A stretch of 23,166 bases of DNA. Origin: a virus. The stretch's first letter is position 1, and each line of letters starts with the position of its first letter. Below the pieces are notes generated by a model. That model saw only the letters and a list, made by a program, of their open reading frames with translations. It had not been told where the DNA came from and ran no database searches. Made by a program: the position numbers and the translations under genes. The DNA lies in the IMG/VR virus record IMGVR_UViG_3300001487_000219. The stretch is one strand, 5' to 3'. This document shows positions 8,341 through 23,166 of the stretch, in pieces.

Positions 8341-11247
8341 ATGCCAGGAATAAATAATAATTTATACCCACCTATTTTTAAAACAGCATATGCGCCTGCT
8401 TTTGCTGGTGAATGTAGAGTTTATTTTGCAATATCTAATTATAATAATTTAGATGATATTGATATAAATAAAGTACAAGTAATTGTACAAAACCAAAAAA
8501 CGAATCAGTCTGTATTAAAAAAAGAATCATATCCTAGCGGTATAAAAATTGCGTCTTTAAAAACAGATCTTGAACGAGCAGGAGATGATAGATATTATAT
8601 TGAATTAATGGATTCTGATATTGAAGGAAAAACGGGTTTTAGTTACAATCAATATTATAAAGTTCAAATTAGATTTACTGCGAAGAATAAACAAGTAAAA
8701 AATATTTCAAATTCGCAGAAAATAGATAATTGGTTAAATGAAACTTTACAATATTTTTCTTAGTGGTCAACGGTAGTATTAATAAAACCTGTTAGTCGTT
8801 TAAAAATTTCTTTAAAATATTTTGAACAAGAATCTTAGAGTAATACTTTAACAACTAATTCTTTTACTGTTCTTGGATAGGTGAAGCATGAAGCTGATTC
8901 TGATAAAGAGGAATTAAAAAATTATAGAATATCCGTATATACTGAAGACGGAGAGTTATTAGAAGATAGTGGATAGTTACTTTTTAATGAGGATAATTAG
9001 ATTCAATATCATTGCCGATATAATTTTTAGAATGGAGACTATAAAATAAAAGTGTCCGTATTAACTAAAAATTTATATTTTCAATAGCAAGTTTTTGATT
9101 TTCAGGTGTCCGCTGTTGCTTATACTAATTTTGAGGCAGTGATTTCTGCGGATATAGATAATAAAAATGCATGCGCAGTTATTTCTGTTAAAAAAGATTT
9201 AATGGTTGGATTGAATACTAATATAGTAATTTAGAGAACTTCTAATAAAGAAGATTTTAAATATTGGTAGGATGTTTATACAACTTCAATTCCTGCAAAT
9301 AGTATTTTAAATTTTACTTGGAGAGATTATACTATTGAAAGCGGCGTTTGGTATAAATATAGAGTATCTAAACGAAATCAATAGAATTTTAGATCAACAC
9401 CTATTGAAATAAAAAATCCTATTATGGCAGATTTTGAAGATATATTTTTAACTAATATCGAAGGACAATTAAAAATTCGATTCGATCCTCAAATTAATAA
9501 TTTTTCTAAAGTCGTATCGGAGTCCTTAGTAGAAACAATTGGTTCTCAATATCCTTTTATTAGAAGGAATGGTAAAGTTGGATATAAAACTTTTTCTATC
9601 TCTGGAACTATATCTTATTTAACAGATATAGGTTCTAATTTAATGCATGCTTCTAAGACATAGCTGTATGGAGATTCGGCAAATTTATATAAAGAATATA
9701 ATCAATAGAACAATATTAATTTATATAATGATATTACTCAGGAAAAAGTTTTTCGAGATAAAGTATTAGATTTTTTATATGAGAATAATGTAAAATTATA
9801 TAAATCTTCAACAGAAGGTAATCTTTTAGTTAAATTAATGAATATTAGTTTAACTCCTAATAATACATTAAGTAGACAAATCTATAGTTTTACATGTACT
9901 GCATACGAAATTGATACTTTTAATTATAATAATTGTATAAAATATTTTATTCAAGACCCTGGCCAATACGTTTAGGAAGATATTTTATTAATACAAAGAT
10001 ATGGACAGCTTTATTATCCTAATTTAAGTGTATATTATTCTCAAGAGGATGAGTCTAAACATTTTAATAATAATGATTTATATTTTGGAGCAGGATAGAT
10101 TTTATCAACGTTAATAAAACAAAAGTATCAAACTTTAACTAGTGAAGATATTGATATTAATATAAATAAATTATCTTATTTAAAAATTACTTTAACAAGT
10201 CCTCCTTATTTAATTGGAGTGATGGAAAATTAGCCTTATCGTATTACAGATAGTACATCCGTGGCCAATGCAGTTTATTCTGGTCATATAGTTAAAATTA
10301 ATGGTGTTCCAATTATAATTAATAAAGATGGTATATATTAGCTTTCTAATGATGATACGGCAATTACTTCATTACAATTTGTCTCTCCTTATGAACAAGG
10401 CGTTATAGATTTTGAAGTTTATATAGAAGAAAGCGAAAAACAAAAAGTGGATTTTAAAGGATATAATAGTTTTAATAAAATAGGTCAGTTATGGGGAACT
10501 TTTAGTTTCTTTGATAGCTTAAAAGAAAATCTTTGTAATAATATAACAAATAGATATCTTTTTACAAACGATTCTTACGAACAAGAGGTTCAGCAAATTA
10601 ATGGTATAAGATTTCAGGCGGAGCCTGGAACGGTTATTTTTGTACGAGAAAATCAAGATGGCCAATACGAAAAACATATTTTAAATGAGACTGGATTATT
10701 ATAGTTTTATGATTAGGATACTAATATTCAAGGTTTTTATTTTATGGGACCGAAACTTGAAGAAGTGTCAGCGGAAGAGAAAGATAAATATGGTTTAAAA
10801 CCTTATCAATTTTTTAATACAAATGAACCTATTACTTTGGATGTTATAAAGCATCCGCAAAATAATTATGTTTATTATTTTTCTTCATACAATAGTATTA
10901 CTGATACTTTAACGGTTCCCGCGGGTTAGCTTCATGATTATGAAGACAATGAAATAGATGGTAATGCTTTAGTTATTTCTGATAATACTTTAAATGGTAA
11001 TTTAATAGGCCCTAATATTTTACAATTGTATTCTAATTTAAATGACACCACATATACATGGGACGCTACAAGTCAAGAAGCTAGAGAATTAAATAATGAG
11101 ACTTTAGGATTATTATTTGCTACTGCTAATAGTTGGATTTATTATCAAGGTATGTGGTATCCTTTTTCTCTTGAGCATCAAGTACCTTTAACTCAAACTG
11201 AAGCTATAATAGATTATTATTGTACAGTTTTGAAAAGGAGGTATTAA
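8341..11247 (+). CDS. Large virion/tail structural protein (about 968 aa) translated with TAG as a sense codon
   Basis: One frame is open from the ATG at 8341 (ribosome-binding site AAAAAGGAGG) to the TAA at 11245. It contains 19 in-frame TAGs, at 8761, 8836, 8878, 8974, 8998, 9028, 9085, 9232, 9268, 9382, 9661, 9706, 9973, 10096, 10231, 10339, 10702, 10714 and 10927. It has zero in-frame TAA or TGA across 968 sense codons of roughly 28% GC DNA. Confidence 0.7.
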
Positions 11248-11252
11248 TTTTT

Positions 11253-21779: not shown

Positions 21780-21781
21780 AT

Positions 21782-23166
21782 ATGAGTGTAATAGATAAAA
21801 TTAAACTTGACGGGACTACCTATGATGTAGGTAAGACACCTGATACCACTCTTGCCGTTAGCGGGTCTCCTGCTGATGCTGCAACAGTTGGTACTGAATT
21901 AAATAAAAAAGTAGATAAAGTCACGGGAAAAGGACTTAGCACAGAAGATTTTACTACAGCTGAAAAAACAAAGTTGGCTGGAATTGCTGAAGGTGCTACT
22001 AACATAGTAATTGACCCGACGCTGACGCAGGCAGGGCAGGCCGCGGATGCTAAAAAGACTGGTGATGAACTAACTGGCTTAAAGAGCGATTTAAATTACT
22101 TGATAGAAGACAAGGAACTTGATAATACATTTGTGCATGGCACGTTTAATAGTGAAGTTTTATAGTATTGGAATCAAGGTGTTAATATCCTGCTAGTAGT
22201 TAGATGTACAAGCGGCACAAAATACAAAATCAGTAAAGATGTTGATACTCCGCTGTTTAGGGTTGCGTATATTAAAACGAAACCCGTTACGGGTACTACA
22301 CTACCAGTTTTTGAATATGTTGAATATAACGGCACTACAACTGAAGCGTTCTATACACCGGGTGAAGACGCTTACTACTTGCTTGTTTGTTTTGGAAATA
22401 CCACCATGGCAACCGTTACCGATCACGCCAGTATTATAGAAGTTGATGCGAAAGGTACAGCCAAACTTGATATTTTAGCAAACGCAATTAGCGCATTAAC
22501 GAACAATGTTACAAATACAGGCGAAACTGTCGAGGAAGTGGCGTCACTGACACTTGCCGATGAAAGAACAGAAATGACGGAAAATATTCTCCCACAGTTG
22601 GAGTTTAGTGAAGGGCATTATATGTCAACTGATGGTTCTGTTCAACCGGCTAGCACTTTGAAATATTCTAATAAAATTCCAGTAACAGAGGGCGATGTTT
22701 TTTCGTTTTTGCCTAGCACTGGTGGCTACCGATTTATTTGTGCTTTTTCCGGGGACACTGCCATAGCGGATAAAGGGGACGAAAACCAAAGCATATATAC
22801 TGTGCCTAATGGTATTGATTCTATTGTTGTCACTTTATATACTAAGATAACATACGAAGCCGTAAATTTCACCAAAGTCATGATTACACACGTAAATGCA
22901 CTAGCTGGTGATGTTGAACAGGCAAAAAAAGACATTGAAAGCATACAGAACGTTGTAATCTCTAACGATTATAACGCAGAAATAACTGACAATGTACAGC
23001 CTATTTTTACGACAGGAGCGATAGCGGCTACTGGGGTATCTTATCCATCGTATACTTCATTCCAGTATACGCAAAAGGTAAGTGTAAAAGAAGGGGATGT
23101 AATACAAGTGATTGGTGCGGATAATGAACATAAATCAATGCGTTGGGTTTGTGCATACGTTGGGAA
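21782..23166 (+). CDS. Tail fiber protein carrying the phage fiber repeat motif (LSTEDFTTAEKTKLAGIAEGA). Its 3' end lies beyond the window. It reads through an in-frame TAG at 22163 into a higher-GC distal domain
   Basis: The ATG at 21782 follows GAGATAGGAGAATAAAT. The frame is open across TAG 22163-22165 and for a further 333 codons to the window end with no TAA or TGA. No plausible restart codon or ribosome-binding site occurs just downstream of the TAG. Confidence 0.65.

Follow-up and report, generated by a model that had tools for sequence, protein, structure and literature searches.

An amber-recoded tailed phage of about 140 kb in which UAG probably encodes glutamate

IMG/VR virus record IMGVR_UViG_3300001487_000219 holds a 23,166 bp stretch of phage DNA (the window, by which we mean the whole stretch that was analysed) whose structural, tail and lysis genes carry the amber codon TAG in frame. 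Here we examine whether TAG is translated in these genes and which amino acid it specifies, most probably glutamate (Glu) rather than the glutamine (Gln) of code 15. The window is an exact slice of the 139,964 bp metagenomic contig NODE_148 of ENA ERZ12302819, from a tailed phage of ~140 kb (gut or rumen-type), and near-identical contigs of 118–140 kb occur in other samples. Counting codons in frame, on the strands given, we found TAG in the following genes:

1–587, minus strand: N-terminal part of an endolysin with a GH25 domain (PDB GH25 matches, E = 1.8e-15); 1 TAG, at 'VIIR-TAG-GYR'; runs off the left edge
8341–11247, plus strand: tail/baseplate-module protein, 968 amino acids, 19 TAG, TAA end; phrog_30026, homologs in 40 loci
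11253–13388, plus strand: baseplate-like tail protein, 711 amino acids, 13 TAG; phrog_32343 and phrog_1887 (tail)
13403–14113, plus strand: structural protein, 236 amino acids, 5 TAG
14131–16770, plus strand: structural protein, 879 amino acids, 13 TAG including a TAG-TAG doublet
16773–17081, plus strand: protein of 102 amino acids, 4 TAG
17191–18012, plus strand: tail protein, 273 amino acids, 2 TAG; phrog_3267 (tail), E = 3e-18
18027–20498, plus strand: tail fibre-like protein, 823 amino acids, 4 TAG
20518–21489, plus strand: fibre protein, 323 amino acids, with collagen-like GDKGD repeats, 1 TAG, TGA end
21782–23166, plus strand: tail fibre gene, 828 amino acids on the parent contig, 1 TAG at 22163–22165; open to the right edge

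A sequence-only reading of the window had listed six of the plus-strand frames (8341–11247, 11253–13388, 13403–14113, 14131–16770, 16773–17081 and 18027–20498) with 19, 13, 5, 13, 4 and 4 in-frame TAGs, respectively, and these counts are exact. Each frame has a length divisible by 3, starts at an ATG with an AGGAGG, GGAGG or AAGGAG motif upstream, ends in TAA and contains no internal TAA or TGA. Out of frame, TAA and TGA together make up 7.1–8.0% of codons in the plus-strand arm (TAA alone ~4.6%, or 1 in 22), so that a stop-free run of ~3,700 codons cannot have arisen by chance. Treating TAG as sense raised the coverage of the window by open reading frames (ORFs) of at least 100 amino acids from 48% (table 11) to 88%, while the control of treating TGA as sense gave only 51%. 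The six listed genes thus do require TAG read-through, as does the GH25 lysin (minus strand 1–587, 1 in-frame TAG), but three further plus-strand genes had been overlooked: 17191–18012 (2 TAG), 20518–21489 (1 TAG) and the gene running from 21782 to the right edge (1 TAG). The stated GC content of ~28% is too low; it is 31.3%. The claim that no ORF ends in TAG holds for the gene models only, of which the 20 complete ones end in TAA (17) or TGA (3), and not beyond them. For the recoded genes this outcome is true by construction, because their ORFs were called with TAG as sense, and we rejected stop-codon usage as a sign of a genome-wide TAG purge for that circularity. The same idea applied to the 11 TAG-free early genes gave no significant result, given that TAG ends ~10% of genes in standard-code relatives.

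On an alternative account TAG is a genuine stop, and the open segments are small genes, pseudogene debris, an assembly artefact or the product of occasional programmed read-through. That the host presumably uses the standard code is the single point in its favour, to be set against ~5,150 late codons without TAA or TGA (7–8% per codon out of frame) and against the recurrence of the same sequence in independent assemblies held by ENA, Logan, NCBI and IMG/VR. The segments between TAGs are not independent genes: each standard-code homolog is one unbroken ORF whose alignment runs through the TAG positions, the baseplate homolog is free of in-frame stops in 10 standard-code loci, and the phage has a cognate tRNA(CUA) gene (see below). 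We regard a genuine stop as extremely improbable and, on the comparative data, as refuted. Gene calls stored for the public contigs already have the read-through lengths of 968, 711, 236, 879, 102, 273, 823 and 323 amino acids; automated pipelines therefore already recognise the recoding. The structural, tail and lysis genes of this phage use TAG as a sense codon.

The recoded codon is concentrated in the late and lysis genes and avoided in the early genes, a feature of stop-codon-recoded phages. The early arm (910–8184, minus strand), which includes several hypothetical genes and in which all genes end in TAA or TGA, has 0 TAG in 2,289 codons, against 63 TAG in 5,154 codons of the late genes (Fisher p = 3e-12 for the contrast relative to Glu codons).

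The baseplate-like protein of 711 amino acids (11253–13388) was the anchor of our comparative analysis. In IMG/VR, 40 loci encode a homolog, many of them on contigs of 100–185 kb; the in-frame stops of this gene are TAG alone in ~24 loci and TGA alone in 6, and 10 loci carry none. When compared with the standard-code members, TGA columns of this protein held Trp in 56% of cases, a 46-fold enrichment, and TAG columns held Glu in 23%, followed by Gln in 13%. ORFs were then called, each locus with the stop set suited to it, and grouped into families; these were aligned with TAG masked as X, and the residues aligned to TAG were scored against the substitution profiles of the 20 amino acids in the same alignments (a Codetta-style test). 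The full run covered 79 gene families from 120 related loci, which we number with the prefix L, and the window, with all sense codons as reference.

The sequence-only reading had taken translation table 15, in which TAG specifies Gln, as its default. It had flagged this as a guess, and Gln was not supported, as every test that we ran favours Glu. Over 49 sites, the log-likelihood (LL) difference between the two residues, LL(E)−LL(Q), was +12.8 for the window, and Glu was picked in 1,994 of 2,000 bootstrap resamples (99.7%). The window's relatives scored in the same direction (L001 +12.8, L002 +22.6, L003 +21.8), as did a second Glu-scoring group (L010, L013, L017, L050, L053, L054, L068 and others; +10 to +27). 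The per-locus result is bimodal, with Gln called for L006, L009, L019 and L040 (−25 to −32) and for L120, L122 and L124 (−12 to −14). In controls, samples of the same size drawn from the window's true codons for E, Q, K, D, N and T were each called correctly 500 times out of 500, and when the families were split into odd and even halves the sign agreed in 20 of 20 loci tested. Asp, Lys, Asn and Thr were rejected as the residue at TAG, all lying well below Glu in this test. Pyrrolysine was also discarded, since it is merely the label that ARAGORN gives to any CUA anticodon and came without other support.

The same picture emerged with the standard-code members as the only reference. Window TAG columns then held 27.2% E and 5.4% Q, compared with 24.6% E and 5.2% Q for true Glu codons of the window, and among conserved columns window TAGs fell on 6 E and 1 Q; this run also called TGA as Trp in the TGA-recoded relatives. 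On columns conserved to at least 85%, all four window TAGs coincided with near-invariant Glu (43/44, 36/36, 32/37 and 22/22), and TAGs of the 711-amino-acid baseplate-like protein lie on invariant-Glu columns of its standard-code homologs. Across genomes, TAG fell on 24 Glu and 1 Gln of such columns in Glu-type genomes and on 4 Glu and 15 Gln in Gln-type genomes. Composition shifted as well: Glu-type orthologs have ~1% fewer Glu codons than standard-code orthologs with Gln flat, and Gln-type orthologs lose Gln. Depletion of GAG in Glu-type genomes was rejected as a signal, because CAG drops too, which points to AT bias and is not specific.

Codon exchanges between relatives of 55–98% identity gave a further contrast between the two types. 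In Glu-type pairs TAG exchanged with GAA in 45.3% of cases and with GAG in 7.0% (Glu 52%), and with Gln codons in 8.1%; in Gln-type pairs it exchanged with CAG in 36.5% and CAA in 28.9% (Gln 65%), and with Glu codons in 5.7%. Because GAA is two mutations away from TAG, its exchange with TAG reflects synonymous exchange and not mutational proximity.

These results bear directly on code 15, under which TAG would be Gln as in crAss-like and Lak phages and the Glu signal a by-product of the codons from which TAG arose. Code 15 is the default of the literature, and Borges et al. found TAG best aligned with glutamine in most cases (10.1101/2021.08.26.457843); phAss-1 and its relatives were given a Gln annotation, and proteomics confirmed Gln in two crAss-like phages (PMC9523058). 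Public gene calls hold only the Gln translation of the window genes, and an exact-sequence look-up for the Glu versions of the window proteins found none in public data. A by-product of codon origin is difficult to reconcile with alignments and a pipeline that return Gln for the sister clades and Trp for TGA yet Glu for the window clade, with window TAGs on invariant Glu columns in four of four cases, and with window-group exchange at 45% with GAA, two mutations away, against 8% with Gln codons.

Several observations weigh against glutamate. At window TAG sites Glu reaches 24.7%, compared with 47.8% at true Glu codons (all-sense reference), and the E:Q ratio is ~3:1 compared with ~11:1. The window and L001, which are 97–98% identical, differ at TAG in only two places, TAG/CAA and TAG/CAG, as code 15 would have it. 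The Glu and Gln labels in the Fisher test on columns of at least 85% conservation derive from the same alignments, which leaves the window's own sites and the split-half test as the non-circular parts of the conserved-column test, and the support for UAG = Glu is comparative throughout. The lower Glu share fits young codons at weakly constrained sites, yet it leaves room for some ambiguity.

Such ambiguity would mean that Glu and Gln are both inserted at UAG, either through partial transamidation or through two competing aminoacylation routes. The two amino acids are biochemically linked via the indirect pathway, and the ~3:1 ratio at window TAG columns does lie between those of true Glu (~11:1) and true Gln codons (~1:5). 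However, the TAG profile against the standard-code reference (27.2%/5.4%) is close to that of true Glu codons (24.6%/5.2%), the per-locus distribution is bimodal and not graded, and CAG-to-TAG transitions at weakly constrained sites explain the Gln excess. We therefore consider mixed decoding very unlikely.

The sequence-only reading had proposed searching the rest of the genome for a suppressor tRNA with a CUA anticodon. tRNA and Rfam scans of the window found nothing, and a tRNA scan of the 10 kb flanks on both sides found none. In relatives, tRNA arrays adjoin a conserved DUF2828-type protein of 504 amino acids, whose gene lies ~8 kb past the right edge of the window in this phage. IMG/VR probes with a tRNA-Val segment and with the group A suppressor pattern retrieved no contigs of the window clade, but a search with the conserved 504-amino-acid protein found them, yielding L145 and L146. 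L145 is a 12.9 kb contig whose copy of this protein is 100% identical to that of the window phage; the contig begins within a tRNA(CUA), of which it retains the 3' 74 nt, directly upstream of tRNA-Ser(GCU). L146, the other end of the 133 kb contig of L003, carries a complete tRNA(CUA) ortholog at the same position. The two differ by compensatory T-stem changes and score 44.4 bits (L145, cut by 2 model positions) and 53.4 bits (L146) against the Rfam tRNA model. A tRNA(CUA) is thus present in the same phage, ~12 kb beyond the right edge of the window.

We compared the architecture of this suppressor with tRNAs of the same phage family, using Rfam covariance-model alignments because the T-stem register is ambiguous for direct measurement of the variable loop:

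Window-phage tRNA(CUA), L145: 1:72 G·U (position 1 from L146), D-loop insertion of 2 nt, variable region of 4 nt, A73 followed by CCA
Family tRNA-Glu(UUC), L051: 1:72 G·U, D-loop insertion of 2 nt, variable region of 4 nt, A73
Family tRNA-Gln(UUG), L051: 1:72 U-A, no D-loop insertion, variable region of 5 nt, G73
Gln-type suppressor, L120: 1:72 U×U mismatch, D-loop insertion of 1 nt, variable region of 4 nt, G73 followed by CCA

The window-phage tRNA(CUA) has U11-A24, a two-base D-loop insertion at the U20a/b position and no nucleotide 47. It shares the architecture of the family tRNA-Glu and has none of the tRNA-Gln features (U1-A72, G73, no D-loop insertion, 5-nt variable region), which speaks against table 15 a second time. 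Gln-type suppressors of the sister clades have a weak 1:72 position, G73 and CCA, like the family tRNA-Gln. We also trained a position-specific isotype classifier on 646 non-suppressor class-I tRNAs of these phages with the anticodon masked; its leave-one-out accuracy was 86%, with 33 of 35 tRNA-Glu and 65 of 68 tRNA-Gln correct and no confusion between the two. The classifier assigned the window-phage suppressor to Glu (Glu−Gln = +14.4), together with those of L146, L153, L050 and L053, and group B suppressors to Gln. A tRNA score and a codon test were both available for 13 loci, and in all of them the two had the same sign. Overall similarity to other phage tRNAs was abandoned as a means of typing suppressors; it was uninformative, every type scoring 0.65–0.73. 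In L047 the tRNA genes follow one another as Glu(UUC), Glu(CUC), CUA, suggesting that the suppressor originated by duplication and a change at position 36.

The tRNA data have their own counterweights. The first two to three bases of the window-phage tRNA(CUA) are cut off at the contig edge, so that position 1 is taken from L146, and in the 20-way comparison the group A suppressors L010, L051, L054 and L068 score Cys marginally above Glu. In Escherichia coli, which has GlnRS, synthetic tRNA-Glu amber suppressors are largely charged with Gln; the outcome of charging therefore depends on the host. In a host that has GlnRS, U35 of the CUA anticodon tips charging towards Gln, which is a point for code 15 (PMC9976931). 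Moreover, C36, which the suppressor replaces with A36, is a strong determinant for E. coli GluRS (PMC9976931). Weighing the tRNA and codon results together, we consider code 15 very unlikely for the window phage and think that UAG is most likely decoded as glutamate.

A route by which this could occur runs through a tRNA body that host enzymes would treat as tRNA-Glu. The suppressor would have arisen from a phage tRNA-Glu (CUC or UUC) by the change at anticodon position 36, and host GluRS would charge it with Glu. The major determinants of GluRS are U11-A24, an augmented D-helix and the absence of nucleotide 47, and one characterised GluRS1 charges only tRNAs having all three (PMC9976931). The suppressor body keeps these major non-anticodon determinants, and GluRS in Firmicutes is typically non-discriminating, an enzyme type that already tolerates both C36 and G36. 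Bacterial GatCAB recognises Glu-tRNA(Gln) by U1-A72 and the D-loop, and the extra base U20B makes it reject tRNA-Glu; U47 is a supplemental variable-loop base of tRNA-Gln that is absent in tRNA-Glu (PMC2811023). Without U1-A72 and with an extra D-loop base, Glu-tRNA(CUA) would probably be left unconverted by GatCAB: because the suppressor has the features by which the enzyme rejects tRNA-Glu, Glu should stay Glu.

In the timing model for recoded phages, early genes are TAG-free and late genes need the suppressor (10.1101/2021.08.26.457843). Applied here, the TAG-free early genes would be translated by the naive host, and late and lysis genes would await suppressor accumulation, becoming translatable only after the tRNA array is expressed and the suppressor out-competes RF1. 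As a separate observation, codons 92–93 of the structural gene at 14131–16770 (plus strand) form a consecutive TAG doublet ('NGT-TAG-TAG-QYLE'), whose reading as Glu-Glu would demand efficient suppression.

The window clade belongs to a family in which the code varies. A neighbour-joining tree of the baseplate protein, indicative only, interleaves standard-code lineages (L004, L007, L011 and others) with UGA = Trp (L008, L016, L020, L028, L038, L039), UAG = Gln (L006, L009, L019, L040, L120–L124) and UAG = Glu lineages, the last in at least three places. This interleaving implies that codes may have switched repeatedly within one phage family. The sister clades resemble the window phage in their homologous baseplate and tail genes, in contigs mostly of 100–190 kb, in the recoding of late genes and in tRNA arrays beside the conserved 504-amino-acid protein. 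They differ in the reassigned codon or in the amino acid.

Amber-recoded phages using code 15 were reportedly described by Ivanova in 2014, and code-15 gut phages (crAss-like, Lak, Garnet/Amethyst/Topaz and phAss-1) have since been treated by Borges et al. (10.1101/2021.08.26.457843), by Peters et al. (PMC9523058) and in PMC10607447. Like the window phage, they have TAG in structural and lysis genes and TAG-free early genes, keep TAA and TGA as terminators, encode tRNA(CUA) within a tRNA array, have a host that presumably uses the standard code and have close relatives that differ in code. Amber recoding of late genes with a phage suppressor is already well established, and the window phage belongs there. 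It differs in that TAG is most likely Glu and that the suppressor body is tRNA-Glu and not tRNA-Gln.

The isotypes given for 180 phage tRNA-Sup in one survey were Gln, Trp, Ile and Tyr, without Glu (PMC10879173). Full-text literature searches targeted at UAG = Glu turned up no account of it for phages or for bacteria. What we take to be the nearest precedent is NCBI translation table 30, the peritrich ciliate nuclear code, in which TAA and TAG both specify Glu and the suppressor tRNAs derive from tRNA-Glu. The likeness is UAG = Glu through a tRNA-Glu-derived suppressor, for which the evidence in the window phage is comparative. In table 30, however, TAA is also reassigned, whereas in the window phage it is the terminator of 17 of the 20 complete genes and is absent in frame; and table 30 is eukaryotic nuclear, genome-wide and constitutive, whereas recoding in the window phage concerns only the late genes of a virus with a presumed standard-code host. 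Taken together, we think it likely that the phage uses a genetic code new for a prokaryotic virus (UAG = Glu, UAA and UGA stop), implemented by a phage tRNA-Glu with a CUA anticodon that escapes GatCAB, and that this code arose more than once within a family of ~140 kb phages.

The sequence-only reading had further matched the phage to crAss-like and Lak-type phages and suggested a Firmicutes-type host. A megablast search of the whole window against 50,697 GenBank phage records gave no match, so that nucleotide relatedness to crAss and Lak phages is lacking, and the best named matches of the conserved 504-amino-acid protein are Bacillus and Listeria phages, at ~38% identity. Genomes of crAss phages are ~100 kb and those of Lak phages >500 kb, compared with ~140 kb here. 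A Firmicutes-type host is plausible given the r1t-type holin, the lysin with GH25 and CHAP domains and the Bacillus and Listeria phage matches; these features, together with the negative megablast search, speak against a crAss or Lak affiliation. Overall, the earlier interpretation was partly supported, in that the recoding is real and the assignments to table 15 and to crAss/Lak are not supported. The 504-amino-acid protein (DUF2828/DUF7788) is itself TAG-free and highly conserved, occurring at L143:18298–19812 (minus strand), at L010:5817–7325 and on >200 IMG/VR contigs; it adjoins tRNA arrays family-wide and is annotated 'RNA-binding protein' in one GenBank record.

Other genes of the window, all TAG-free, include the following:

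621–851, minus strand: holin of the r1t family, 76 amino acids, TAA end; PF16945, E = 1.8e-15
1432–1974, minus strand: metallophosphoesterase, early arm
1976–2467, minus strand: AAA_33/KTI12-type P-loop kinase, early arm
3059–4282, minus strand: RNA ligase with PHA02142 OB domain, early arm
5106–7595, minus strand: MVP-like protein, 829 amino acids, early arm; MVP_shoulder, E = 1.9e-23, and Vault_3
21486–21779, plus strand: protein of 97 amino acids, through which the parent contig was located

On the parent contig the endolysin is 490 amino acids long, with Glyco_hydro_25 and CHAP domains. Its TAG column, said to hold a small residue in homologs, is L, S or A in solved GH25 structures (PDB) and is uninformative on the amino acid. 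The choline-binding-like repeats that had been attributed to the lysin correspond to a sub-threshold match (E = 0.008) in a separate ORF (2471–2986). The phosphoesterase, kinase and ligase (1432–4282, minus strand) form an RNA-repair-like set resembling a split Pnkp/Rnl tRNA-repair system, which could guard the suppressor and other tRNAs against host anticodon nucleases. The MVP-like protein, unusual for a phage, has 99–100% identity in the near-identical contigs L001 and L021, and one relative has a weak Band_7 match. An ORF antisense to its gene (6597–7652, plus strand; 351 codons, 1 TAG) is almost certainly no gene but a shadow ORF of AT-rich DNA, and was not counted. The fibre protein at 20518–21489 (plus strand) has a C-terminal motif, IEDGNLIME, in two copies, and a short GDKGDTGAKGDKGD repeat that is collagen-like.

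Further tRNAs in the arrays have unusual anticodons. Outside the window, the window phage encodes a tRNA with the opal-reading anticodon UCA (L145:2186–2257), Arg-like by the classifier and a syntenic ortholog of the tRNA-Arg(UCU) of L146 (61/72 identity); despite it, TGA ends three window genes and never occurs in frame. The Glu-type relative L010, in which TAA is the main terminator, has a tRNA with the ochre-reading anticodon UUA (2377–2451) ~1.3 kb downstream of its CUA suppressor. Arrays of L084, L085, L096 and L154/L170 contain CUA tRNAs of 89–92 nt with long variable arms (type II, Ser/Leu/Tyr-like), which might mark further amber meanings or contain introns; TAG sites of L084 lean towards Gln, from only 9 sites.

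Phage TAG is essentially always annotated as Gln (code 15), and tools such as prodigal-gv apply Gln automatically. If UAG is Glu in this clade, pipelines that force code 15 mistranslate every late protein, and databases show a neutral for an acidic residue at ~1.2% of positions, often at invariant Glu sites. Viruses and bacteria would have a further natural genetic code, and synthetic biology would gain a useful part in a natural amber suppressor that inserts Glu in Gram-positive hosts. Four code states in one family would constitute a natural experiment on code switching, with which the role of the tRNA body and of the indirect-pathway checkpoints GluRS and GatCAB in the outcome could be tested. 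What a reassigned stop encodes in a family of this kind would be decided by the tRNA body that had acquired the anticodon.

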